DNA of 63,433 bases from a virus. Positions 1 through 63,433 of the stretch are shown here, in pieces. The position numbers and the translations under genes are program-made. The notes under the pieces are model-generated. The model did no database searches. It saw only the letters and a program-made list of their open reading frames with translations, and was not told the origin of the DNA. The stretch spans positions 1-63,433 of IMG/VR virus record IMGVR_UViG_3300019860_000021. One strand, given 5' to 3'. Within the stretch, counting starts at the first letter, position 1. Each line of letters starts with the position of its first letter.

Positions 1-127
1 TCGTTTTGCCAGATGGAGCTTCGTAGTTGGGCGTAGTTTCGGGCCACTGGTTCTCCCTTGCTGATGGTCATGGTTTGCTTTTGCAAATGGGGGTGGCTGT
101 CCCGTGGTGGGGTGGCCGTTTTTGTTA
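1..127. repeat. Terminal overlap, exact copy of 63307..63433
   Basis: nt 1-127 (tcgttttgccagatggagc...ggccgtttttgtta) are identical by eye to the last 127 nt. This implies a circular or circularly permuted assembly with a unique length of 63,306 bp. Confidence 0.9.
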
Positions 128-9133: not shown

Positions 9134-9149
9134 CCCATCATCCTCGTTC

Positions 9150-9194
9150 TTCTGGCGCGGAGACCCCGGGCTTCAGCCCTGGGGAGGAAGTCAA
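9150..9194 (+). repeat. solo IS200/IS605-type end hairpin
   Basis: 9150-9190 is 41/41 identical to the reverse complement of 25413-25453 (left end of the tnpB element). It ends in GGGGAGGAAGTCAA like the element's right end. Confidence 0.75.
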
Positions 9195-18706: not shown

Positions 18707-19312
18707 ATGCGCATCGAGAAGATCGTTAACTGCACCGGGATGCCCCTGCTGATCCCCCAGGGGGCGGGTGACGAGCACGAGTACGTCGAGTACCCGGCCG
18801 CGCGAGTGCCGGCGCGGGTTGTGACCGAGGAGGTCACCGTGGCCGGACTGGACGTGCGAGTCACCCGAGACCTCGGGGTGGAAGGGCTCCCCGACCCACA
18901 GGAGGGCGTCTACTACCTGGTTACCTCCCGGGTTGCGCTGGCCGCCCCGGACCGCACCGACCTGCTGGTCCCCTCGGACATCTACGAATGGGGGGACGGG
19001 CGGAAGGTGGCTGGGGCGCTGCTGCGCCCCGAGCCCACGCCCCGTGGGTGGGGCCGGGGTCTCCCCGACCTCTCCGCGGTCGCAATCACCCTGAGTGACC
19101 ACCACGGCACATGGGCGACCCAGGTCGTCGCCGAAAAGACCCGTGACGGGAGCTGGGTGGTCCACACCGACGCGTCCCCGGGGGACGGCAGCTTCCCCGG
19201 CCGCTACACAGGGCTCGACCAGGGCGCAGCCCTGGCGAAGCTCGCCGACCTGCTCCCTGCCGCCCAACAGCAGGGCCGGGTCTTCGAGGAGAAGCTCAAG
19301 AACCTCCTCTGA
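18707..19312 (+). CDS. hypothetical protein; N-domain paralogous to the middle of 28367..29365
   Basis: MRIEKIVNCTGMPLLIP...GLPDPQEGVYYLVTSRVALAAPDRTDLLVPSD aligns with MRIINLTPHDVTLVT...VLPPPQPGVVYVVARPVAERANRPDLVVPTN. Confidence 0.6.
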   Translation: MRIEKIVNCTGMPLLIPQGAGDEHEYVEYPAARVPARVVTEEVTVAGLDVRVTRDLGVEGLPDPQEGVYYLVTSRVALAAPDRTDLLVPSDIYEWGDGRKVAGALLRPEPTPRGWGRGLPDLSAVAITLSDHHGTWATQVVAEKTRDGSWVVHTDASPGDGSFPGRYTGLDQGAALAKLADLLPAAQQQGRVFEEKLKNLL

Positions 19313-19323
19313 CCGGCCGACGT

Positions 19324-19405
19324 GAGGGACTGCTCCCACCTGGAATGGGAGTGGTCCCTCCCCTATCACAGGCGTCCCCGTCTAAGCTTGGTGGGCGGGG
19401 ACGCC
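19324..19405 (+). terminator. two strong hairpins after the stop at 19312
   Basis: gagggactgctccca N7 tgggagtggtccctc (19324-19360) and ggcgtccccg N15 cggggacgcc (19371-19405). No U-tract. Confidence 0.5.
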
Positions 19406-19421
19406 TAACCATATGGTTTAC

Positions 19422-19633
19422 CGGTAGTTAGGCGGCGCAAGCCCCGGTCTTCAGGCCGGGGTAAGCCGCCAAGAACATTCTCGCCGCTGGACGGGCGGAG
19501 AGACTAAACGCCTGTGGAGGCGACGTAAGACCACCCTTTGGGGTGGCGGACGCCGGTGAAGCAGGAACCCACCGGAGCGCGGCGTGAGCCGCGCAGGAGG
19601 AATCTCCGGCATTCACGCCGGGGAGGACGTCAA
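19422..19633 (+). mobile_element. non-autonomous IS200/IS605-type MITE carrying an orphan omega-RNA scaffold
   Basis: Starts after TTAC (19418-19421). The LE-like hairpin ccccggtcttcaggccgggg is fused to the last codons of a tnpB (AKNILAAG..). Blockwise homology to the revcomp of 24128-24290. Ends ...GGGGAGGACGTCAA. Confidence 0.7.
19470..19633 (+). ncRNA. orphan omega-RNA (TnpB guide-RNA scaffold) candidate
   Basis: Conserved blocks ggcggagag..taaacgcctgtggag..gtaagacc..ggtgaagcaggaa..cccggc.ttca..ggggagga.gtcaa are shared with the tnpB-linked copy. The variable helices between them keep self-complementarity. Confidence 0.6.
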
Positions 19634-19738
19634 ACGGTAAACTAGCTGCAATAACCTCATAAAACGCGAGCCCGCCGGGTGCTGGGAACACCACGACGGG
19701 CTCTGACCCACCTACCTGACTACCCCAGGAGGCAGGCT

Positions 19739-19927
19739 ATGCATAAGCCTAACCCCATCGTGCCCAAGCTCGGGCACGACCCTCACTCTTTCCCCCAGCC
19801 GGGCACCCCCATCCCCGACTGGATCACCCTTCACCCCAAGATCACCCACTTCGACTTCGGCCACCGAAACCCAGCCCAGACCGTCGCAGCCAAGGCCGCC
19901 GAGTTCGTCCAGGGGGCGTCCAAGTGA
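19739..19927 (+). CDS. hypothetical protein (62 aa)
   Basis: ORF 19679.. trimmed to the ATG at 19739 after AGGAGG. The stop overlaps the GTG of the next gene. Confidence 0.45.
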   Translation: MHKPNPIVPKLGHDPHSFPQPGTPIPDWITLHPKITHFDFGHRNPAQTVAAKAAEFVQGASK

Positions 19928-21075
19928 GCGACGTCATCGAACTGGAAGCCCTCGACCAGCCCACCTTCACCCAGGTCGGACACTGGCTCATCTTCCGCCA
20001 CGACATCTCCCCCACAGCGCGGCACCTCTACACCGTCCTCGCCGCATTCGTGCACCAAGGACGCCGCAACACCGGTGACACCGAGGTGTGGCCCTCACTC
20101 AACCTGCTCGCCGTCATCCTCGGCCTCTCCAAGGGCGAATCCGTCACCCCCTATCTCGACGAACTCATCCAGGCCGACGTCATCCGCAAACGCTCCACCA
20201 CCATCGGCGGCATGAAGGCGCGGAACACCTACGCCATCCGGTTCAACCCGCCGCCCGGCACTCCGGAGGCGAACGGGCTCGGAGACCTCCTGGCCCCGCT
20301 CAAGGAGATCGCCAGCGACCCGAAGGCCATGAGCCGGGCAGCCAAGGAGGTGCGCGCGACGATCAACGAGCGGCGGGAGCGGGAGAAGCAGGCACGCGCC
20401 GGACAGTCCGGGAAAACCGCAGGTCGCGCCGTACCCCGGAAAAGCGGGGTACGTACCCCAGAATTCCGGGGTACGTACCCCCGAAAACCGGGGTGGAACA
20501 ATACGAAGGTCGAACAATACGAAGGTCGTCCTCTTCTTCCCGCGCGCGCGGAAGCTGCGGCGCCGCCTCGACCTCGGCGCAGCGAGGAGGAAGAGAAGAA
20601 CAACACCAAGGGTCAGAAGGGGTGTTCTTCTGACCAGCAAAGGTGCACCACGTGCACCATGGTTGACCAGCGAAAGTGCACGACGTGCACCAAGAGGGCG
20701 GAAACCCCGGAAACCCGCGCCATCCGCGTCGTCCTCGATCGCCTCGCCGACCATTCCCCTACCGAGGACGAAGCCCGCGCCGTCATCACCCACATCCGCA
20801 ACCAGGCCACCCAGCGCGGCACCACGATCGCCCGCATCGACAAGTGGCTCGACGGCCGCGACCCCGACACCCTCCGGCACGACCTCGCCCACATCCGCGC
20901 ACAAACCACCCACCAAGGCCCGGGATGCGGCATCCACCGCCGCAAAACCCTCCCCTGCCGCATGTGCGCCATCGCCGCGGCAACCGGCGACGTCGAGCCG
21001 CTTCTCGCCGAGCTCAAACGCGTAGGCCCCGATGAGCGGCCCGACCTCGCTGACCTCTGCGCCGGCCACTCCTAA
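19924..21075 (+). CDS. replisome organizer / initiator-like winged-helix protein
   Basis: N-terminal HWLIFRHDISPTARHLYTVLAAFV...WPSLNLLAVILGLSKGESVTPYLDELIQADVIRKR is DnaD/organizer-like. Sits upstream of dnaB. Has an internal repeat cluster. Confidence 0.6.
   Translation: MSDVIELEALDQPTFTQVGHWLIFRHDISPTARHLYTVLAAFVHQGRRNTGDTEVWPSLNLLAVILGLSKGESVTPYLDELIQADVIRKRSTTIGGMKARNTYAIRFNPPPGTPEANGLGDLLAPLKEIASDPKAMSRAAKEVRATINERREREKQARAGQSGKTAGRAVPRKSGVRTPEFRGTYPRKPGWNNTKVEQYEGRPLLPARAEAAAPPRPRRSEEEEKNNTKGQKGCSSDQQRCTTCTMVDQRKCTTCTKRAETPETRAIRVVLDRLADHSPTEDEARAVITHIRNQATQRGTTIARIDKWLDGRDPDTLRHDLAHIRAQTTHQGPGCGIHRRKTLPCRMCAIAAATGDVEPLLAELKRVGPDERPDLADLCAGHS
20431..20690. repeat. ori-like cluster of palindromes and direct repeats inside the organizer gene
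   Basis: GGGGTACGTACCCC at 20446-20459 and 20468-20481 (22-bp phasing). gaacaatacgaaggtc x2 in tandem (20496-20527). ggtcagaag N7 cttctgacc (20611-20635). GTGCAC-N3-GTGCAC at 20643-20657 and 20676-20690. Confidence 0.55.
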
Positions 21076-22826: not shown

Positions 22827-24062
22827 ATGCAGCATATCGGAGACCGCATCCGCGAATACCGCATGCTCCACGGCTTCACCCAAGAAGACCTCGCCGAAAA
22901 GGCGGGCATGCACCCCAACACCATCAAAAAACTCGAGCAGGGCGGCACCGCGCGCATGGACACCCTCCACCGCATCGCCCGTGCCCTTAACACAACCACT
23001 GGCAGCCTCATCTCCAGCCGCCCCCGACTGCTGGAACACGGCGACGACGGCAAACTCGACCTGCTCGACCTGCGCCGCACCATCTCCCCACCCATCACCG
23101 TGGACGGAGACCCGCTGTGCGACGACACCGAACCCCCCGACCTGCCCGCCCTCAAAGACGCCCTCATCCGTCTAGACGCCGCCTACCACGGCGACCGGTA
23201 CACCGACCTCGCGGAAATCCTGCCAGGGCTGATCCGCAGCACTCACACTGCCGTAGCCCACCACACCCACACCCCACGCGAGGCTGAGGCGCGCCGACTG
23301 CGGTCTGTGGCACTGCAGATCGCCGCCCGCTACCTCACCCAGGTGCGTGCCTATGATCTGGCGCATCTGGCGCTGGCGGACGCGACACGGGACGCTGCCG
23401 CATCCGACGATGAGATGGTCTCCGTGTCCTGCGTGGTCGGTCAGGCCTGGGTGCTGATCCGCCAGGGCCGGTTCGACGAGGCCGAACGGCTGGCTGCGCT
23501 GACTGCAGACCGTGTTGAGCCGCGCCTGTCCACCGCGACCGTGGACCACTTGTCATCCTGGGGATACCTGCTTCTGCGGGTCTCTGCTGCGGCGGCCCGC
23601 AACAACCGGCCTGATGTGTCCGCTGAGGCGCTCGGGCTGGCGCGCGTGGCTGCGGCTCGGATTGGGCGTGACCGCTACCACGAGCTGCGGAGCTGGGGGG
23701 CGTTCGGTCCGCTCACCGTGGAGCTGCGGAGCATTGAGGCGGAGTTGGTTGCGGATCGGCCTGACCGGGTGTTGGAGATGGCTGGTCGGCTGCCGTTGGA
23801 GTCGAGGTTGACCTCGTCTGACTCGTGGCACCGGCATCGCCTGGATGTGGCGGAGGCGTATGCGCGGATGCGGCGGGATAGTGAGGCGATACGAGTTCTG
23901 GCTGAGCTGCGTCGGGAGGCGCCGACGTGGCTGCGGCATCAGCGGATGGCTCGGGAGACGTTGGAGAGGGTGGTGCGGCGTCGGAAACGTGCTCTCACCA
24001 CAGAGCAGCGTGCGTTGATCGAAATTCTTGGGCGCAGACCCCGGCTTCAGTCGTGGGGTTAG
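22827..24062 (+). CDS. XRE-family HTH regulator with large helical (TPR-like) C-terminal domain
   Basis: ATG at 22827. IREYRMLHGFTQEDLAEKAGMHPNTIKKLEQG is an HTH_3 motif. About 340 aa of helical repeat-like sequence follow. The last 11 codons lie in an IS-end hairpin. Confidence 0.8.
   Translation: MQHIGDRIREYRMLHGFTQEDLAEKAGMHPNTIKKLEQGGTARMDTLHRIARALNTTTGSLISSRPRLLEHGDDGKLDLLDLRRTISPPITVDGDPLCDDTEPPDLPALKDALIRLDAAYHGDRYTDLAEILPGLIRSTHTAVAHHTHTPREAEARRLRSVALQIAARYLTQVRAYDLAHLALADATRDAAASDDEMVSVSCVVGQAWVLIRQGRFDEAERLAALTADRVEPRLSTATVDHLSSWGYLLLRVSAAAARNNRPDVSAEALGLARVAAARIGRDRYHELRSWGAFGPLTVELRSIEAELVADRPDRVLEMAGRLPLESRLTSSDSWHRHRLDVAEAYARMRRDSEAIRVLAELRREAPTWLRHQRMARETLERVVRRRKRALTTEQRALIEILGRRPRLQSWG
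24020..24058 (+). repeat. solo LE-like IS-end hairpin
   Basis: TTGAT (24015-24019), then 19 nt (cgaaattcttgggcgcaga), then ccccggcttcagtcgtgggg. Same layout as the LE of the tnpB element. Confidence 0.55.
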
Positions 24063-24127
24063 CCCATCCCCCTCGATCCTCAGACATTGGACAAGAGAGC
24101 CAAGCGCACGCTCCCGACCCTCGTGTG

Positions 24128-24290
24128 TTGACTTCCTCCCCACGGCTGAAGCCGGGGGATTCCAACCCTCGCGGGTTGGGTTTCCTGCTTCACCGCCAGC
24201 CGCCCGCCGGGCTTACGCCGTTTGGGTCTTACGCCGGCTCCACAGGCGTTTTACCTCTCCGCCAGCCCGGCGGCGAGGATATTGCGTGCG
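24128..24290 (-). ncRNA. omega-RNA of the tnpB element (candidate)
   Basis: Overlaps the tnpB 3' end and extends to the RE terminus, as expected for TnpB guide RNAs. Homologous to 19470-19633. Confidence 0.6.
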
Positions 24291-25357
24291 GCGTTCACGT
24301 CGCGGTCATGGGCCGCACCGCAGGCACATACCCACTCCCGAACGTTGAGCGGCATCTTCTCTTGCAGGGTGCCGCATGCCGAGCACAGCTTGGAGGAAGG
24401 GAACCAGCGGTCCACGACCAGCAGTTCTCGGCCGTACCAGGCGCACTTGTACTCCAGCATCGAGCGGAATCCCCGCCAGGATGCGTCGGAAATGGCGCGG
24501 GCCAGCCGCCCGTTCTTGACCATGTTGCGGACGGTCAGGTCCTCGATCACGACCGTTTGGTTCTCACGGACGAGCCGAGTGGTGATTTTGTGCAGGAAAT
24601 CGCGGCGCCGGTCGGTGATCCGCGCGTGGATGCGGGCGACCTTGCGGCGGGCCTTCTCCCGGTTCGCCGACCCCTTGGCCTTGCGGGACAGGGCCCGCTG
24701 CGCACGGGCGAGCTTTCGCCGGTCGCGGCGTTCGTGCCGGGGGTTGGTGATCTTCTCCCCGGTGGAGAGGGTGGCCAGGGCGGTGATCCCAGCGTCCACC
24801 CCTACCGAGGACTCCACCGGGGGAAGCGGGCGGATCTTCTCCTCGACCAGGATGGACACGAACCAGCGTCCCGCGTTGTCGCGCGACACCGTCACCGTGG
24901 ACGGCTCTGCACCTTCTGGGAGGGGACGAGACCACACGATGCGCAAGGGCTCGCTCATCTTCGCCAACGTCAGCGTGCCGTCCCGGTAGCGGAACGCCGA
25001 GCGGGTGTACTCCGCCGACGCCCGCGACTTCTTCCGGGACTTGAACGTGGGGTACTTGGCCCGCTTGGCGAAGAAGTTCGCGAACGCCGCTTGCAGGTGC
25101 CGCAATGCTTGCTGGAGCGGAACCGACGACACCTCGTTCAGGAACGCGAGTTCGGGGGTTCTCTTCCATTGGGTGAGCGCGGCCGAGGTCTCCACGTAGG
25201 AGACGCGGCGGCCCTCTTGGGTGTAGGCGCGGGTCCGCTCCTCCAGGGCCTTGTTGTAGACGAGGCGGACGCAGCCGAACGTCCGGAGCAGTTCTTCGGC
25301 CTGCTCGGGGGTCGGGTAGAAGCGGTACTTGTAGGCCCGCTTCACAAGCTGCGCCAT
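24251..25357 (-). CDS. tnpB: TnpB RNA-guided nuclease
   Basis: MAQLVKRAYKYRFYPTPEQ..., RuvC motifs VGVDAGI, VIEDL and DRDVNAARNI, Zn finger CSACG...CACG. Confidence 0.92.
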   Translation of the reverse strand: MAQLVKRAYKYRFYPTPEQAEELLRTFGCVRLVYNKALEERTRAYTQEGRRVSYVETSAALTQWKRTPELAFLNEVSSVPLQQALRHLQAAFANFFAKRAKYPTFKSRKKSRASAEYTRSAFRYRDGTLTLAKMSEPLRIVWSRPLPEGAEPSTVTVSRDNAGRWFVSILVEEKIRPLPPVESSVGVDAGITALATLSTGEKITNPRHERRDRRKLARAQRALSRKAKGSANREKARRKVARIHARITDRRRDFLHKITTRLVRENQTVVIEDLTVRNMVKNGRLARAISDASWRGFRSMLEYKCAWYGRELLVVDRWFPSSKLCSACGTLQEKMPLNVREWVCACGAAHDRDVNAARNILAAGLAER

Positions 25358-25551
25358 GTCTCACATTTTACTAGAAGATCAGTTAAGAACGATCTGCGAT
25401 GGGAGGATGGCGCTTCCTCCCCAGGGCTGAAGCCCGGGGTCTCCGCGCCAGAACTCCGATAACGCGCCAACCGCCACGAAGGAGTAAAGTACCCACCACG
25501 TCCACCGCAAAGGACGCAAAGAAGCCCCGCGCTTCCGCAAGAGCCGGGGCT

Positions 25552-27495
25552 GTGGCCAGACAACCAGTGGGGGTTGCTGACGTGGTTGATTCTACGCCGC
25601 CTTCCCGCGGCGACGCCAACCGTTCCACGCGACGGCGCTTCAACACCGCCGAACGCGTCGCAATGTACCTCGCCTCCGGCGGACGCTGCTCCAACTGCGG
25701 CACCGAACTCGAACCCGGCTGGCACGGCGACCACATCACTCCCTGGTCCCGAGGAGGGGCCACCGACTCCATCAACGGACAGGCGCTCTGCCCGTCCTGC
25801 AACCTGCGGAAAGGGGATAAGCCTTCCATGAGCTGGAATGGTCCTGACCTGCGCGAGTGGCAGCGCAAAGCGCTCGACACTTACCTCGCCCACGACCCCG
25901 CGGACTTCCTCGCGGTCGCCACACCAGGCGCAGGAAAGACCACCTTCGCACTCCGCGTCGCCCACGAACTCCTCGAATCCGGGATCGTGCAGCGCGTCGT
26001 CGTCGTGGTCCCCACCGACCACCTGAAGATCCAGTGGGCTAACTCCGCCCACCGATGCGGCATCAGCCTCGACCCCAAGATCAGCAACGCCGACGGCCTG
26101 GAAAAAGCAGCCGACTACCAAGGCATGGCCATGACCTACGCCCAGGTGGCGTCCCAACCCGACCTGCACCGAATGGGAGCCGGACAACGCAGGACCCTGG
26201 TGATCCTCGACGAGATCCACCACGCCGGCGAGGACAAGGCGTGGGGGGACGCGGTCCGCCACGCCTTCCAGCCTGCCGAACGTCGCCTGTGCCTGTCCGG
26301 CACACCGTTCCGCTCCGACAACAACCCGATCCCGTTCGTCCGCTACGACGAGGCAGGGAAGTCCAAGGCGGATTTCACCTACGGGTACGGGCGTGCGATC
26401 CGCGACGACGTGTGCCGCCAGGTCGACTTCCACTTCTACGACGGGGAAATGAAGTGGATGGACTCCGGTGCGGTCACCGCCAGCGCCAACCTGTCCGCGG
26501 ACCTGGCTGCTGGTGACCGCTCCTCGGCGTTGGAGACCGCGCTCGACCCGGACACCGGATGGATGCGCGGGGTCCTCGAAGTCGCCGACACCGCGCTGGA
26601 CAACCTACGCACTGAAGTCCCCAACGCCGGCGGCCTCGTGATCGCGTACCGGGCCTACCATGCGCGCGCCTACGCCAAGATCCTCCAGGAGCTCACCGGC
26701 GAGGAGCCGACGGTGGTACTCAGCGAGGACGGGCCGACCGCGAACCAGGGCATCGAGGCGTTCTCGCGTGGCACCGGCAAGTGGCTGGTCGCGGTGCGCA
26801 TGGTGTCGGAAGGTGTGGACGTGCCGCGGCTGGCGGTGGGCGTGTACGCGACGAAGACCCGCACCGAGATGTTTTTCCGGCAGGCGGTGGGCCGGTTCGT
26901 GCGGAAGCAGAAGGGTGAGGAGCACTCCGCGTTGTTGTTCGCGCCTGCGTTGAAGGGGTTGCAGGCGATGGCGGCGACGATCGAACAGGAGATCCAGCAC
27001 GAGATCGACCTGGAGCGTCAGGAGTACGAGAAGGCACAGCGGGAAGGCGGCGTTCAGGGGATGTTGGCGTTTCCGGCTGTGCCGTTGAGCGCGTCTGACC
27101 CCACGTTCGACCGGGCGATTCACAGCGGGCGGGAGTACGTGGGGCAGCAGCTCCACGAGCGCACGATGGAGCGGATGAAGCAGTACAACTTCCCCAGCAG
27201 CGCTTTCCAGGCGGTGCGGGCGATGGTGCACGACGAGATGCTTAAAGAGGGCGCTGTTTCTGAGGCTGTGCCCGTAGCGGTCGCGGAGCCGGAGCCGAAG
27301 TTCCGGTTGGAGAAGCGACTGCGGGACACGTTGTACCGGTTGGCGAAGCGGATCGCGATTCGGGACGGGCGTGACCATTGCGAGGTGCAGCGAGAAGTCA
27401 ACCAGGTCATGGGGGTGCGTAAGCGCAGTGAGGCGAACCTTCAGCAGTTGGAGTTGGGGATTGCCTGGGCTCAGAAGTACTTGGGGGATCGGTGA
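25552..27495 (+). CDS. HNH endonuclease fused to SF2 (DEAD/DEAH, ResIII-type) helicase; start uncertain
   Basis: HNH: CSNCGTELEPGWHGDHITPWSRGGATDSINGQALCPSCNLRKG. Helicase: ATPGAGKTT, LDEIHHAG, LSGTPFRSD, VRMVSEGVDVPR, QAVGRFVR. GTG at 25552 or 25567. The ORF track start at 25399 lies inside the IS left end. Confidence 0.85.
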   Translation: MARQPVGVADVVDSTPPSRGDANRSTRRRFNTAERVAMYLASGGRCSNCGTELEPGWHGDHITPWSRGGATDSINGQALCPSCNLRKGDKPSMSWNGPDLREWQRKALDTYLAHDPADFLAVATPGAGKTTFALRVAHELLESGIVQRVVVVVPTDHLKIQWANSAHRCGISLDPKISNADGLEKAADYQGMAMTYAQVASQPDLHRMGAGQRRTLVILDEIHHAGEDKAWGDAVRHAFQPAERRLCLSGTPFRSDNNPIPFVRYDEAGKSKADFTYGYGRAIRDDVCRQVDFHFYDGEMKWMDSGAVTASANLSADLAAGDRSSALETALDPDTGWMRGVLEVADTALDNLRTEVPNAGGLVIAYRAYHARAYAKILQELTGEEPTVVLSEDGPTANQGIEAFSRGTGKWLVAVRMVSEGVDVPRLAVGVYATKTRTEMFFRQAVGRFVRKQKGEEHSALLFAPALKGLQAMAATIEQEIQHEIDLERQEYEKAQREGGVQGMLAFPAVPLSASDPTFDRAIHSGREYVGQQLHERTMERMKQYNFPSSAFQAVRAMVHDEMLKEGAVSEAVPVAVAEPEPKFRLEKRLRDTLYRLAKRIAIRDGRDHCEVQREVNQVMGVRKRSEANLQQLELGIAWAQKYLGDR

Positions 27496-28073
27496 GTCGT
27501 CTCCTGCGTGCCCGTGGGGGCTTGGTGGACGCGTTGTCGTCGGCGTTGGACAGTGGCGGGCACGGGTTGTCCAATGTTCCGGTGTTGTTGAAGCGGCTGC
27601 TGGCCGAGGAGGGGTGGCGGGAGTTCGAGACGGTGCGGGGGGAGGTTGTGCGGCATGAGCGGTTCGAGGAGTTCGTGACTCTGCCGCCGTTGAAGGGGTT
27701 GGGGACCAGTGTTGGTCTGATCAAGCGGATCGTGGCTGACGACCGCGAGGCGGTGGACCTGCTCGACCGAGTGCTTCAGAGACAGGTCGGTCGCCCCAGG
27801 GAAATTGTGTACAATGTACACAATTCCAAAGGGCGGCCTGCTGGAAATTCTCAGGCACGTGCTCTCCGCCGTCTCCGCAAGGACGCCCCAGAGCTGCACG
27901 CCGAAGTGATCGCCGGCCGCCTCTCCGCGCACGCCGCGATGGTCAAGGCCGGATTCCGGACACGCACCATCAGCGTGCCGGTGGAGCACCCTGACCGAGT
28001 CGCGGCAGCGCTCCGCAGACACATGACCCAGGAACAGCTCGAAGAACTCGTTCGCCACCTGACAGACGACTGA
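27492..28073 (+). CDS. putative DNA-binding protein (193 aa)
   Basis: Start overlaps the helicase stop. Basic C-half GRPAGNSQARALRRLRKDAPELHAEVIAGRLSAHAAMVKAGFR. Contains a 23-bp perfect palindrome. Confidence 0.6.
   Translation: MSRLLRARGGLVDALSSALDSGGHGLSNVPVLLKRLLAEEGWREFETVRGEVVRHERFEEFVTLPPLKGLGTSVGLIKRIVADDREAVDLLDRVLQRQVGRPREIVYNVHNSKGRPAGNSQARALRRLRKDAPELHAEVIAGRLSAHAAMVKAGFRTRTISVPVEHPDRVAAALRRHMTQEQLEELVRHLTDD
27803..27825. repeat. 23-bp perfect AT-rich palindrome inside a CDS
   Basis: AATTGTGTACA a TGTACACAATT. Confidence 0.9.
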
Positions 28074-28092
28074 ACCCCGCGCGCACGTGAAC

Positions 28093-28139
28093 GGCCCTGC
28101 CTATCCTGAAAGCAGCGGCACCCCAGGAAGGGCAGGGCC
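28093..28139 (+). repeat. conserved stem-loop, copy 2
   Basis: GGCCCTGCCtatcctg...cacccc.ggaagGGCAGGGCC, 20 nt after the stop at 28073. Confidence 0.7.
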
Positions 28140-28170
28140 TATGCCGGCAGAGTACCCCGAGTCGCTATGC

Positions 28171-28204
28171 CCCCACCACTCGACGTGGTGAGGGCTTTTG
28201 GTTT
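28171..28204 (+). terminator. terminator-like hairpin
   Basis: ccccaccac tcgac gtggtgaggg followed by cttttggttt. Confidence 0.5.
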
Positions 28205-28258
28205 CTGCTGGTGGGGTGGGGTGTTGGCGAAGGCGAGAGAAATTTTCCAACCCACCAC

Positions 28259-31408: not shown

Positions 31409-31450
31409 GAGCGCGGAATGGACCTTCGTCCAGTACCAGGTTCGTCCGCA

Positions 31451-31483
31451 GCGCTCCGGTCTTCAGCCCGGGGAGCGCGTCAA
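31451..31483 (+). repeat. solo RE-like IS-end hairpin
   Basis: gcgctccggtcttcagcccggggagcgcGTCAA. The TCA is the stop codon (minus strand) of the holin-like gene. Confidence 0.5.
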
Positions 31484-50574: not shown

Positions 50575-50697
50575 TTTCGTGGACCTCCACTCACGATGTG
50601 CTGTGTGGACGTCCCAGGGATGGCGGACCCTCCCAGACCCTGGGACCCTGGGAGGGCCCTTCCTCCGGTGATCAGCCGGAGGCGTCTAAACCCCCAC

Positions 50698-51135
50698 CTA
50701 CGAGGGCGGGGGAAGCTGTTCAGTGTGGAAAGCAAAGCTGACCGGCACGTGCCGGATCAGCGGGTCAGGGTCACGCATCGGCCGCGCATCCACCAACCTG
50801 ACGGACCACAACCGGTGGCCCTCCAGTTCGATGTCGTTCTCCCTGTGGTCAAACAACGTGGTGAGCTCGGCTGCGATCTGCAGAGCCTCAGCGAACCCTC
50901 CACGGCCCCTGGTCCACACGTGCAGGGTGTGCACCACGCGACGCCCAAACCGGCCGTGCACGTTATCCGCAGTCTCGGTAGCCTCCCCCACTGTCACAAA
51001 CGGGTGCGGCTGGTCCTCAGGCACGTAGTCCCACACCGGCACCGACAAATACTCGTTGCACCGTTGCACCACGGCCTTTTGCACAGCAGCGAGCGCCGTG
51101 GCCGCGGTCGGGGTAATCCTGGTCACCGCCACCAC
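50698..51135 (-). CDS. tail terminator / completion protein (DUF3168-like)
   Basis: VPVWDYVPEDQPHPFVTVGEATETADN...HTLHVWTRG pattern plus position. Confidence 0.6.
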   Translation of the reverse strand: MVAVTRITPTAATALAAVQKAVVQRCNEYLSVPVWDYVPEDQPHPFVTVGEATETADNVHGRFGRRVVHTLHVWTRGRGGFAEALQIAAELTTLFDHRENDIELEGHRLWSVRLVDARPMRDPDPLIRHVPVSFAFHTEQLPPPS

Positions 51136-56041: not shown

Positions 56042-57374
56042 ACCCGGCTACCGCGATGACCTCCCGCTGCTCGGCGAGGTCACGGTGCGCCACCATGTAC
56101 CGCATCGCATCCATGCCGTGGTCATCGTCCTTGACCGGCTGGTCTTTTTCCCTGCCATCCCGGGAGCGTGACCAAATGTAGCCAGGGATCTCCTCCACCG
56201 TGCAGGTGGGACGCCGCGCCCCCTCCAGCTCTGGGTCGCGCTCCACCAGCGCACCCCGCACGAAAAACAGGCGGGGTTTACCGTCCTCGGATACCCGCAG
56301 CCGGGCCTGCACTGCCTGAATCCCATCAAGCACGCTCTTGTGCGCGGGCGTGGTTTCCACGCCGAGTTCACGCTCCAACACGGCACGCCCCTCAGCGTCA
56401 TGATCACACACGACCGCGGCCGGGCGGGGCTCCAACCAGCGGCCATCCGGTGTGGTGACCTGGTCGAGAATGTCACGGGCATGCTGGTCAACAGTGCGCC
56501 GAGTCCGGTAGATCTCCCGGTACAGGTAGAGACGCCCATCCTCGTCCTCAGCCCACCACTGGGCAACGAACGGGTTGGTGAACCCGAAGTCCACGCTCAG
56601 GTAGCGGGGCCAATGCTCAGGAATCGAAAACGGGTCGACGACGTGCACGGCCTCCTGGAACTGGTCGTAGACCATGCCCTCAGCCGCAGCCCACAAACCA
56701 AGCCGCAACCTGGCATGCCGCACCCCGGTGAGCCTGTCGAGTTTGCCAATATAGTCGCGGCCTCGTTCCGTGAGCGTCCCATCAGAGTTGTAGTAGACAG
56801 GGTTGTCCTCATGCCGGCTGTTGATCAGCCGGGTCAGCCCCTTATCACAGCGTTGCTTCAACCAGTGGGTAGGCGCGTCCGGGTTACATGCGGCCAACAA
56901 CTGCTGGAAGCTCAACCGGCCGTGCCGCAACCGAGAGGTGATCGCCTCCCAGTCGTTGAGAGTGAGCTCAGTAGCCTCATCGGCGAACACCAGGTCGTAC
57001 TCGCTCGACATGATCTTCGTGGCCTTGTCCATCCCGCCGACGACGATCACCGACCCGTTGTCGTACCGGTAAGAGGCAGCCTCCTGCGGGGAGCCGCCAT
57101 AAAAGTGCACCGTGCCCGTGGCCAGGGCTTCCTTGATGACCTGCTCGCGCCACGTCACCAACGTCGTCGACCCCAGCGACACCGAGGTTTTACGGACGAT
57201 CAACCCGCGCATCCCCGGGTTCAACAGGGCAACCAGGTGCAACTTCTCCAAACACACGCGGGACTTTCCCGTACCAGCGGGGCCGCAGACCAACACCTCA
57301 TCCTCGCGGGCCTCCATCACCTGCACCGCAGTCCCACGCGGCCGATAGGTGTGCACCAGCTCAGCGGAGCGCAT
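56031..57374 (-). CDS. terL: terminase large subunit
   Basis: Walker A VCGPAGTGKS, Walker B/acidic LVFADEATE, C-terminal nuclease DDDHGMDAMRYM. Confidence 0.92.
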   Translation of the reverse strand: MRSAELVHTYRPRGTAVQVMEAREDEVLVCGPAGTGKSRVCLEKLHLVALLNPGMRGLIVRKTSVSLGSTTLVTWREQVIKEALATGTVHFYGGSPQEAASYRYDNGSVIVVGGMDKATKIMSSEYDLVFADEATELTLNDWEAITSRLRHGRLSFQQLLAACNPDAPTHWLKQRCDKGLTRLINSRHEDNPVYYNSDGTLTERGRDYIGKLDRLTGVRHARLRLGLWAAAEGMVYDQFQEAVHVVDPFSIPEHWPRYLSVDFGFTNPFVAQWWAEDEDGRLYLYREIYRTRRTVDQHARDILDQVTTPDGRWLEPRPAAVVCDHDAEGRAVLERELGVETTPAHKSVLDGIQAVQARLRVSEDGKPRLFFVRGALVERDPELEGARRPTCTVEEIPGYIWSRSRDGREKDQPVKDDDHGMDAMRYMVAHRDLAEQREVIAVAGFNW

Positions 57375-62211: not shown

Positions 62212-63392
62212 GCGGTTCCCTCCTGCATGGCGCGTTCGAGTTGTTCGGCTTCGGCGAGTGCGTCGGCGAACATCGCCTGGGTGTTTTGTTGCCGGTAGGT
62301 GAGTGGTCGGGCGTCGGGGAAGGCCACGACGTTGCTGCCGTTGGGGGTGTTCATGACCTCGTTGACGACGCTGGGCAGGGTTGAGGGGTGGAGCCCCTTG
62401 GTCATCCAGTGGGCGAGGCCGCGTCGGATGTCGTCGGGGTGGATGCCGTCGTTGAGGAGGGTCTTGATTTCTTTAGCGACGTGTCCGATGACGCGGCTGG
62501 GGGGTCGTTTGGGGCAGCGGTCGAGCCATTCGCCGATGAGGGTTTGGGTGGTGGGGGGTGGGGTGTGCGGCGCTGTTGCGCCCGAAGACGTAGTCTTCGG
62601 TTCTCTTTCCTGTACCAGAAGACTCCCGGAACCTTTTACACCTACACCTACACCGGACCCTTCCGGGAAGGGTTTCGGGAACCCTTCCGGGAACCCTTCC
62701 GGGAACCCTTCCCGCGTGGTCTGTTGGGGTTCGTTGACCTGCTGTTTTGTGGTTTTGGGGTGCAAGGGTTGGCTGTCACCTCCTCTGTGGTTGGGGTTGG
62801 GGTCGGAAATGGGCTGGTGGAAAGGGTTGGGAGACCCTTCCTGGAAGGGTTCCTGGAAGGGTTCCGGGAACCCTTCGGGAAGGGTTTCGGGAAGGGTTCC
62901 AGCAACCTTTTCGATGAGAGCGCGGGTGCGCTCAGCGCGCTCGGTCGGCAGTTCGTCGATGGGGAGCCGAGACAACTCGTAGCGGAGTACAGCGCGCAGG
63001 GTGGGGGACACGGTGGACTGGACGTGGCCGAGCGCGGACTTGAGTACGTTCGGCTGTTTCCACAGTCCGTCGTGGCGGATGAAAGTGCGCACGAGGACTT
63101 CTTCGGTGTCCTCGTCTACGACCACGTACCAGTACGCGTTGAGGCGTTCCAGGGCGGCGGTGACCCGGGGGCCGGTCATGCCGTGGGCGAAGCGTGCCCA
63201 GCGGCGTTCTTGGAGGGGGAGGACACCCGCGGTGTTGATGTTGGGTTGGGAGAGCAGGACGAAGTACAGCCATTGAGCGTCGACGTCCAGTTCGGTTTTG
63301 AACTTCTCGTTTTGCCAGATGGAGCTTCGTAGTTGGGCGTAGTTTCGGGCCACTGGTTCTCCCTTGCTGATGGTCATGGTTTGCTTTTGCAA
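62208..63392 (-). CDS. initiator-like winged-helix protein with internal iterons
   Basis: N-terminal YAQLRSSIWQNEKFKTELDVDAQWLYFVLLSQPNINTAGVLPLQERRWARF (organizer/Rep-like). Central EGFPEGFPEGFP linker is encoded by the iterons. Start at 63392 (TTG) or 63377 (ATG), inside the terminal overlap. Confidence 0.6.
   Translation of the reverse strand: MQKQTMTISKGEPVARNYAQLRSSIWQNEKFKTELDVDAQWLYFVLLSQPNINTAGVLPLQERRWARFAHGMTGPRVTAALERLNAYWYVVVDEDTEEVLVRTFIRHDGLWKQPNVLKSALGHVQSTVSPTLRAVLRYELSRLPIDELPTERAERTRALIEKVAGTLPETLPEGFPEPFQEPFQEGSPNPFHQPISDPNPNHRGGDSQPLHPKTTKQQVNEPQQTTREGFPEGFPEGFPKPFPEGSGVGVGVKGSGSLLVQEREPKTTSSGATAPHTPPPTTQTLIGEWLDRCPKRPPSRVIGHVAKEIKTLLNDGIHPDDIRRGLAHWMTKGLHPSTLPSVVNEVMNTPNGSNVVAFPDARPLTYRQQNTQAMFADALAEAEQLERAMQEGTA
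62653..62900. repeat. two clusters of 12-bp-phased GGAA-N3-TTCC iterons
   Basis: Cluster A 62653-62712, including cgggaacccttc x3 in tandem (62676-62711). Cluster B 62831-62900 (tggaagggttcc x2, gggaacccttc, gggaagggtttc, gggaagggttcc). Nearby are ccgaagac gta gtcttcgg (62582-62600) and tacacc x3 (62637-62654). Confidence 0.8.
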
Positions 63393-63433
63393 ATGGGGGT
63401 GGCTGTCCCGTGGTGGGGTGGCCGTTTTTGTTA
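63307..63433. repeat. Terminal overlap, exact copy of 1..127
   Basis: See feature 1..127. Confidence 0.9.

Follow-up and report, generated by a model that had tools for sequence, protein, structure and literature searches.

The closest described relatives of the element reported here are the PATEs of Geobacillus stearothermophilus (ISGst-type), which are short and protein-less, carry both hairpins, left-end (LE) as well as right-end (RE), of a full-length relative, lie 3' of a short motif without target duplication and often encode omega-RNAs that need TnpB in trans (Meers et al. 2023, PMC10055086). A homing role has been established for the TnpB of IS605-type elements (PMC10055086). The omega-RNA (reRNA) of ISDra2-type elements overlaps the 3' end of tnpB, stops at the transposon boundary, receives its guide from the flank and has a multi-helix fold. 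Actinomycete elements that carry both a Y1-type tnpA and tnpB, such as those of a metagenome contig (L157), of Saccharomonospora phage PIS136 and of a T. fusca MAG contig (L214), have a tail in which the tnpB frame extends into the scaffold.

Here we describe a 212-bp element of this general type in the genome of a Thermobifida phage. Like the PATEs, it is protein-less, is bounded by the hairpins of a full-length relative, appears to have been inserted 3' of a short motif without target duplication and carries a predicted omega-RNA that would need TnpB in trans. It differs from them in residing in a phage rather than a chromosome, in being found as a single copy so far, in lying at a motif one base off that of its lineage (TTAC vs TGAC), in being accompanied by an adjacent deletion and in having a tnpB of another lineage as its nearest neighbour. 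With the actinomycete elements it shares the tail, but it lacks tnpA and keeps only 40 codons of tnpB; with the ISDra2-type omega-RNA it shares the overlap with the tnpB 3' end, the stop at the boundary, the flank-supplied guide and the multi-helix fold, but its RNA gene is uncoupled from the tnpB mRNA that is the usual precursor. The kind of element is already described (PATEs with omega-RNA), while this instance is itself new. We read it as a protein-less deletion derivative of a foreign tnpA+tnpB IS605-type lineage, with its scaffold intact and most probably a silent selfish passenger (probability about 0.82).

Results

Structure and boundaries of the element

The window, by which we mean the whole stretch of 63,433 nucleotides that was analysed, represents a complete genome, assembled as a circle, that is related to Thermobifida phage P1312 (KT021004, which infects T. 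fusca): the opening 127 nt recur as the final 127 nt, and a blastn comparison with P1312 covered nearly the whole genome at 94–98% identity. The element (Table 1) lies inside a 612-bp intergenic gap between the + strand ORFs 18707–19312 and 19924–21075, upstream of a DnaB-helicase/XRE block. Its limits, directly behind TTAC on the left and at TCAA on the right, fit the ends seen across the family, in agreement with a sequence-only reading of this DNA that had called it a MITE-like IS605 derivative with a scaffold and without tnpB; the TTAC, LE hairpin, shared scaffold blocks and TCAA end that this reading had picked out were all recovered at the same positions.

Table 1. Coordinates of the element, its flanks and other IS200/IS605-type features of the window
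Feature	Position	Strand	Sequence or size	Basis
Target/TAM-like tetranucleotide adjoining the left end on its 5' side	19418–19421	+	TTAC	sequence reading
Protein-less IS605-type derivative	19422–19633	+	212 bp	
Left end (LE)	19422–19470	+	CGGTAGTTAGGCGGCGCAAG, hairpin, then TAAGCCGCC	identity to L157 LE, DNA fold
LE hairpin, TnpA-type	19442–19461	+	CCCCGGTCTTCAGGCCGGGG	folds as DNA hairpin
Deletion-junction microhomology	19465–19470	+	GCCGCC	comparison with L157 LE and tnpB of relatives
Remnant of tnpB frame, last 40 codons and stop	19465–19587	+	AAKNILAAGRAERLNACGGDVRPPFGVADAGEAGTHRSAA, then stop	translation
Complete omega-RNA scaffold (predicted), overlapping tnpB tail and right end	19477–19633	+		covariance model R1
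Right end (RE)	19604–19633	+	hairpin CTCCGGCATTCACGCCGGGG (19604–19623), then AGGACGTCAA	sequence, DNA fold
Cleavage motif closing the RE	19630–19633	+	TCAA	sequence reading
20-nt flank, candidate guide if transcription passed the RE	19634–19653	+	ACGGTAAACTAGCTGCAATA	position only
Resident tnpB-only IS605-family element	24128–25458	-		ends by comparison with P1312 copy at a different site
Resident omega-RNA scaffold	24128–24280	-		covariance model R1, 125.7 bits
Resident tnpB	24251–25357	-	uninterrupted, 368 codons	Pfam OrfB_IS605, Cas12f1-like_TNB, HTH_OrfB_IS605
Motif preceding the resident element	25459–25462	-	TTAT	sequence
Single-hairpin element, derivative of the resident lineage	9142–9194		53 bp	
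Single-hairpin element	31437–31483		47 bp	

The two ends carry subterminal hairpins that are alike, each 20 nt long with a TTCA loop, and lack terminal inverted repeats, as expected of a PATE or MITE, and the element's flanks show no target duplication. Two substitutions private to the orphan lie in its RE hairpin, where one of them puts an A.C mismatch at the stem's top, and the (G)TCAA terminus about 10 nt beyond this hairpin is common to nearly all aligned related TnpB-linked elements. The LE contains CGGTAGTTRGGCGGCGCAAGCCCCGG. The only protein-coding content is the tnpB tail, which is in frame from 19465 (..AAKNILAAGRAER..; codons 19465–19584, stop 19585–19587) and parallels the C-termini of the PIS136 and L157 TnpB proteins; the database peptides nearest to it are, without exception, short tnpB tails. 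Although only some ten tnpB codons had at first been thought to be kept, the number is 40, since the tnpB frame of this lineage extends into the scaffold. Two minus-strand ORFs (19428–19694 and 19451–19612) were considered as coding and rejected, as neither had a credible or significant Pfam match. The features above support, at the level of sequence, the identification of 19422–19633 as a MITE-like (PATE) IS200/IS605 derivative with a complete putative omega-RNA scaffold and without tnpB.

A full-length guide-RNA scaffold

Alignment of the element with the reverse complement of 24128–24290, which comprises the 3' end of the resident tnpB and the region downstream of it, revealed the common blocks GGCGGAGAG, AAACGCCTGTGGAG, GTAAGACC, GGTGAAGCAGGAA and GGGGAGGA.GTCAA; both blocks of 13–14 nt have exact matches at only these two places within the window. 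Between the blocks the orphan's helices are unlike those of the resident scaffold in sequence, yet self-complementary, and the folds of the two scaffolds thereby bear out the earlier remark that the intervening helices had been replaced with pairing retained.

When the 3' ends of 80 TnpB loci from IMG/VR were aligned, a family-wide omega-RNA skeleton emerged, consisting of GCCTGTGGAG, GTAAGACC, GAAGCAGGAA, GGAATC, a hairpin and GAGGA.GTCAA, with variable helices in between. A covariance model (R1) was then made from 18 TnpB-linked scaffolds, leaving the orphan out, with an RNAalifold structure of 28 pairs. The orphan matched this model from position 1 to 147 of 147 with 95.8 bits (E 3.6e-30), inside the 89.9–102.7-bit range of the TnpB-linked scaffolds of its subfamily, and forms standard pairs at 26 of the 28 positions, the other two being non-standard. 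The resident scaffold matched the same model (Table 1), and the third match in the window was small and partial (9140–9194). This full-length match rules out a chance resemblance, as well as a likeness confined to the terminal hairpin.

The consensus structure itself shows compensatory or both-side changes in 18/28 pairs (RNAalifold; covariation test). In a 25-sequence alignment, standard pairs filled 95.8% of the pair cells, compared with at most 54.5% when the partners were slid by 1–3 columns, and the covariation score was 0.398 compared with at most 0.099 for slid partners, although the alignment was model-guided and fitted to the model, which favours it. A search of the whole window against Rfam gave no match at gathering score. 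The best match below threshold was to HgcC (RF00062; 25.8 bits, E 3.7e-4, gathering threshold 50), which we take to be a tnpB-associated family, and Transposase-2 (RF03015) was also matched below threshold.

Relationship to full-length elements

The sequence-only reading had implied that the orphan stems from, or works with, the tnpB element 4.6 kb away. The comparisons argue against this: orphan and resident element are identical at 31/45 positions of the LE and 121/181 of the 3' part, and the TnpB of the parental type is 46% identical to the resident TnpB. Derivation from the resident element was rejected on these grounds, that is, 67% identity compared with 87–94% to other lineages, a different TAM (TGAC vs TCAT/TTAT) and the divergence of the TnpB proteins. 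The phage window contains no tnpA and a single copy of tnpB. The region 24020–28234 was also considered as one large IS605-type composite with an HNH-helicase gene and rejected, there being no right end near 28234.

Far closer counterparts were found elsewhere. A complete element of 1723 bp, with ORFs for a Y1-type tnpA and for tnpB, is present on the metagenome contig L157. It is preceded by TGAC and closes with GTCAA, its LE is identical to that of the orphan at 43/44 positions and its last 168 nt match the orphan's 3' part at 146/168. A second TnpB-linked scaffold (L190) is 93.6% identical to the orphan. Among phages, Saccharomonospora phage PIS136 gave the closest match, at the 3' end of its tnpB (78.5% over 163 nt); its element (PIS_088/PIS_090) carries a divergent Y1 tnpA. 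The ends of the orphan are homologous to those of a full-length Y1-TnpA element, as in non-autonomous members of IS200/IS605. The deletion junction can be read from the same comparison: the L157 LE runs ..GGGGTAAGCCGCC and then ATCT, the tnpB of relatives runs AACGCCGCC and then AAGAACAT, and about 1.5 kb, comprising tnpA and most of tnpB, was lost between two GCCGCC hexamers.

A metagenome scan with a 31-mer from an orphan-specific helix returned 116 contigs, chiefly from soils and peat, most of which have a full-length tnpB with a product only ~42–46% identical to the phage TnpB. Together, these comparisons show the putative parent to be a tnpA+tnpB IS605-type lineage that is common in soil and compost actinomycetes and unlike the resident element.

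Loss of tnpB is not rare in this subfamily. Among 52 non-redundant metagenomic scaffold copies with at least 1.3 kb of upstream sequence, a full-length tnpB was present in 33, a partial one in 15 and none in 4, leaving 19/52 without an intact gene. Orphan copies with other truncations (L090, L092, L129, in which the LE is present, and L216) do not have this junction; L216 is another viral contig, from a metagenome shared with a P1312-like phage. A 19-mer spanning the junction (GGTAAGCCGCCAAGAACAT) had 0 matches in IMG/VR and none in 216 fetched loci, and its 2 matches in GTDB genomes were to unrelated Alphaproteobacteria, with ~4 expected by chance (estimate, 596 Gb). A multi-copy MITE was rejected because IMG/VR, the GTDB genomes and the fetched loci gave no second copy with the junction. 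For this derivative neither multiple copies of the same structure nor an exact empty site was found, which leaves its own mobility putative.

Target motifs

Boundaries in these lineages were set by identical IS copies at different sites, both between the window and P1312 and within IMG/VR groups. Left ends of the family sit directly behind a motif of 4–5 nt. The resident lineage begins with CGGAGTTCTGGCGCGG directly after TTAT (window) or TCAT (P1312, L004) and closes with GTCAA, and the orphan's lineage has TGAC before 6/6 distinct left ends. The orphan's own TTAC is one base off this consensus, with the last base right. Across lineages, the final base of the TAM varies together with the base immediately 5' of the LE hairpin, C occurring with G and T with A, and the orphan, which reads ..GCAAG up to the hairpin, is placed after TTAC. 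This correlation agrees with the IS608 rule of base pairing between the cleavage site and a 'guide' tetranucleotide in the LE. The motifs are unremarkable, because the published TAMs of characterised TnpBs are similar: TGAC for ISAba30, TTAT for ISDge10 and TGAT for ISTfu1, the characterised TnpB of T. fusca, which is compared here by TAM alone (PMC10787141, PMC12923547).

The insertion site

P1312 and four related viral contigs are without the element at this site. P1312 and L085 have a common left flank up to GGTTTAC and a common right flank from (A/G)CGGTAAACTAGC, and L084, L086 and L087 have the right flank and the motif TG(T/G)TGGCAC(A/G)GCCTCAC in common. Between the flanks the relatives carry a native segment. 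It starts with CTCTTCTCGGAAATG.., the leader of a module of variable genes that measures 2.7 kb in L085 and is reduced to a 150-bp remnant in P1312, and it closes with the conserved TG(T/G)TGGCAC(A/G)GCCTCAC. In the window, the stretch from just past TTAC to just past TCAC is swapped for the element. A simple insertion is inadequate for this locus, because the relatives hold other sequence there. A true empty site or donor joint would read GGTTTAC joined directly to ACGGTAAAC; no such clean site was found among the IMG/VR sequences searched with both flanks, and relatives carry 150 bp–2.7 kb instead. Both breakpoints lie directly behind a TYAC tetranucleotide, and a random right breakpoint would fall behind TNAC about once in 64 (estimate). 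This arrangement suggests a TnpA-mediated insertion with an adjacent deletion. Its place in this Thermobifida phage is a mosaic hotspot.

Transcription, guide and candidate nucleases

A scan of 19200–19950 for sigma-70-like consensus sequences found no promoter, which is weak evidence in an actinomycete phage. By eye, TGTTGGCAC...TAAACT of the relatives was considered as a -35/-10 pair and rejected for unfit spacings. Directly upstream of the element, two hairpins with 15-bp stems (19324–19407; z = -6.2) lie in a region, 19313–19425, with a folding energy of -65 kcal/mol, and in the predicted fold they look like terminators of the preceding gene. Any tnpB promoter borne by the LE would be gone, because the retained LE ends 9 nt past its hairpin. 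Given the missing consensus promoter and the strong upstream hairpins, expression of the orphan RNA appears doubtful.

If transcription did pass the RE, the flank would serve as guide (Table 1). Within the window this 20-nt sequence has no second occurrence, even when up to 3 mismatches are tolerated, and it is present behind TCAC in P1312, L084, L085, L086 and L087, perfectly in L085 and with 1 mismatch, at position 1, in the other four; in this phage it follows the RE terminus TCAA. The motif before it in these five related phages is TCAC and not the TGAC of the lineage. With TCAA here and TCAC in the relatives, the flank has the 'empty-site' targeting geometry of IS605 (PMC10055086). It is no special programming, as every IS605 copy has a guide derived from its flank.

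Two sources of protein can be considered. The sequence-only reading had the intact phage TnpB load this RNA and so acquire a second nuclease specificity, at a TAM followed by ACGGTAAACTAGCTGCAATA, which we consider very unlikely. The resident frame is unbroken over 368 codons and encodes three Pfam domains, and the family-conserved blocks (GCCTGTGGAG, GTAAGACC, GAAGCAGGAA, GGAATC and GGGGAGGA.GTCAA) occur in both scaffolds, which makes cross-loading by the resident TnpB conceivable. The flank is kept in related phages behind TCAC, which differs from the resident TCAT at its last base only, and one report describes at least one TnpB that tolerates weak TAM variants (PMC11043419); candidate substrates for the phage TnpB would be TCAT, TTAT, TCAC or TTAC followed by ACGGTAAACTAGCTGC. 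Set against this, the TnpB of the orphan's lineage is only 46% identical to the resident one, the variable helices of the two scaffolds are unlike, the resident motif TCAT/TTAT departs from TTAC, TCAC and TGAC, P1312 has the same TnpB element without the orphan scaffold, no promoter was detected, two strong hairpins separate the upstream gene from the element, and an LE-borne tnpB promoter, if there was one, is deleted. Lineage, TAM and transcriptional context thus disfavour the idea that the phage commands two differently programmed specificities.

T. fusca itself is the likelier source. MAG contigs of this host encode TnpBs with 78% and 74% identity to the parental type, and a Y1_Tnp gene lies beside one of these, so that host TnpBs are the likeliest candidate partners, ahead of the phage TnpB. 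A search of the literature on TnpB/omega-RNA cross-compatibility yielded nothing directly usable.

One could picture a host-TnpB homing or competition device, a reading that we rate as very unlikely: co-infecting P1312-like phages would be cut at ..TCAC followed by (A/G)CGGTAAACTAGCTGCAATA, and repair by recombination would carry the element, along with its flanking markers, into the rival genome. The 74–78% identity of the host proteins speaks for it, as do the protospacer in 5/5 relatives examined and the TCAA before the target in this phage, an arrangement that separates occupied from empty sites. Yet the target of the relatives is preceded by TCAC and not TGAC, the consensus scan gave no promoter and the element lies behind strong hairpins, the similarity of host TnpB scaffolds to the orphan is only roughly 70% (a rough reading of local alignments), and the element has been found in one genome so far, the reverse of what would be expected if homing were efficient.

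Discussion

The evidence is best accounted for by the protein-less deletion derivative named at the outset, and its history may be pictured as follows. The element would have entered the genome of a P1312-like Thermobifida phage by TnpA-catalysed single-strand 'peel-and-paste' insertion 3' of TTAC, with the cognate Y1 transposase supplied by the host during phage replication, as T. fusca carries such elements. Insertion would have been coupled to loss of the native segment from TTAC to the downstream TCAC. Having no promoter of its own and lying behind two strong hairpins, the element is probably a selfish passenger that is currently silent. Read-through transcripts, if any, would be bona fide omega-RNAs guiding to the sequence 3' of the element, with a host TnpB of the orphan's lineage, and not that of the phage, as the likeliest protein to bind them. 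The expected effect would be the standard one for IS605, in which element-less alleles are cut and recombination restores or spreads the element.

In its most far-reaching form, an expressed phage-borne orphan omega-RNA, loaded in trans by a host or phage TnpB, would cut TCAC-(A/G)CGGTAAACTAGCTGCAATA at the head of the replication module in co-infecting P1312-like phages. We judge this very unlikely. If it were true, the element would be an RNA-guided marker-exclusion or homing weapon in phage–phage competition, and the precise swap of the native segment between two TYAC motifs would have been left behind by such activity or by TnpA-mediated adjacent deletion. That the element has been exapted in cis, replacing the leader- or promoter-like region of the replication module as terminator, insulator or promoter, is highly improbable: although the replaced segment ends TG(T/G)TGGCAC(A/G)GCCTCAC in relatives, directly upstream of the shared CGGTAAACTAGCTGCAATAACC, and the element is flanked by convergently organised gene blocks of the + strand, the scan detected neither a promoter-like nor a + strand terminator-like site within it, transposon ancestry fully explains its sequence without extra conserved features, and no related phage has the element, so that there is no conservation behind a recruited role.

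As a deletion derivative of a foreign lineage, the element is a record of IS200/IS605 elements passing between Thermobifida and its phages, supplies clean boundary and TAM information for these IS lineages and is a naturally occurring case in which to try the published proposal that omega-RNAs and TnpBs are modular and can act in trans. It would be of interest only if the RNA proved to be made and loaded, since the target is conserved among phages that compete with this one; failing that, it is ordinary transposon debris.

Two further elements of the window, of 53 bp and 47 bp, are likewise IS200/IS605-derived and protein-less, end in GTCAA and lie behind a 4-nt motif; they differ from the orphan in having one hybrid LE/RE hairpin each and no omega scaffold. 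The 53-bp element stems from the resident IS type and the 47-bp one from the L214 type of T. fusca, both of them lineages other than the orphan's. The 53-bp element has an exact empty site in P1312, where CCCATCAT is joined to CCCCCC, which confirms the cleavage points, directly after TCAT and at TCAA, and shows that TnpA-type mobility acts on this phage lineage. The IS200/IS605 complement of the 63-kb genome comprises a tnpB element, an omega-RNA PATE from another lineage, the two mini-elements with a single hairpin and the remnant of a left end.

The orphan's site is a mosaic hotspot

The site held by the orphan element, a protein-less IS605-type derivative with an omega-RNA scaffold (19422-19633, + strand), is a mosaic hotspot. 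The modules that occupy it vary among relatives (L085, reverse complement, about 75-2780; L001, 2117-2268; and the related viral contigs L084, L086 and L087), with the P1312-like contig L085 carrying a 2.7-kb module in which a CxxC-repeat protein comes first and Thermobifida phage P1312 (KT021004) a 150-bp remnant. A conserved motif, TG(T/G)TGGCAC(A/G)GCCTCAC, closes the modules of all relatives at this site and has been lost from the window. The two hairpins upstream of the element (see table) are kept in P1312 and L085, and are probably factor-independent terminators that lack a U-tract.

Features of the window at and beyond the orphan's site
Feature	Position	Strand	Sequence or context
53-bp single-hairpin mini-element	9142-9194	+	CCTCGTTCTTCTGGCGCGGAGACCCCGGGCTTCAGCCCTGGGGAGGAAGTCAA; TAM (target motif) TCAT at 9138-9141
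Two successive perfect hairpins, 15-bp stems	19324-19407	+	directly 3' of the stop of ORF 18707-19312
Left-end-like module, third lineage	24015-24065	+	TTGAT, then CGAAATTCTTGGGCGCAGACCCCGGCTTCAGTCGTGGGGTTAGCCC
HNH endonuclease fused to ResIII/DEAD helicase	25399-27495		encoded by the P1312-absent region 25464-28234
47-bp single-hairpin element	31437-31483	+	CAGGTTCGTCCGCAGCGCTCCGGTCTTCAGCCCGGGGAGCGCGTCAA; preceded by GTAC

Single-hairpin elements and the resident IS

Two shorter elements in the window each carry a single hairpin. The 53-bp mini-element is made up of a left end of the type found in the resident IS (the tnpB-only IS605-family element of the window) fused straight to the right-end terminus TCAA. 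P1312 holds the exact empty site, CCCATCAT joined to CCCCCCACAGG; the mini-element is thus an insertion polymorphism, precise and with no duplication of its target. The 47-bp element is common to both phages (P1312, about 27341-27392, with 21 additional bp immediately upstream), and its left-end portion and AGCGCGTCAA tail match the ends of a tnpA+tnpB element on L214, a contig from a T. fusca metagenome-assembled genome.

The tnpB-only IS occupies different sites in the two phages (window 24128-25458 vs P1312 29332-30667), and the two copies share only 90.9% identity, compared with 95-98% for adjacent DNA. The window position equivalent to the P1312 insertion site does not form a clean empty site. 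The third-lineage left-end-like module directly adjoins the resident IS at the latter's right end, and homology to P1312 ends exactly behind the module's TTGAT, at window position 24019; a right end matching this module was looked for near 28234 and was not found. Directly adjoining the IS left end is a 2.77-kb stretch (25464-28234) that is missing from P1312.

Orphan scaffolds in other contigs

Four soil metagenome contigs (L160, L167, L199 and L210) carry scaffolds of the orphan's subfamily and have no tnpB within 1.5 kb of them. A region of about 250 nt upstream of the scaffold, including TTGTGCTATCTTTATATCG, is conserved among the four contigs, and these scaffolds may be stand-alone omega-RNA-like genes or the partners of another protein. 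A further orphan scaffold, with 94.4% identity to that of the window, lies at 1750-1906 of viral contig L216 (IMGVR_UViG_3300009852_000184), where it comes with a 5'-truncated tnpB tail and lacks a left end; L216 and L085 share one source metagenome.

Genome closure

Window positions 1-127 and 63307-63433 both align to one stretch of P1312 (about 56210-56336). The assembly therefore closes into a circle of about 63.3 kb. The window carries a single tRNA-Ile (GAT) gene at 50625-50707 on the minus strand.
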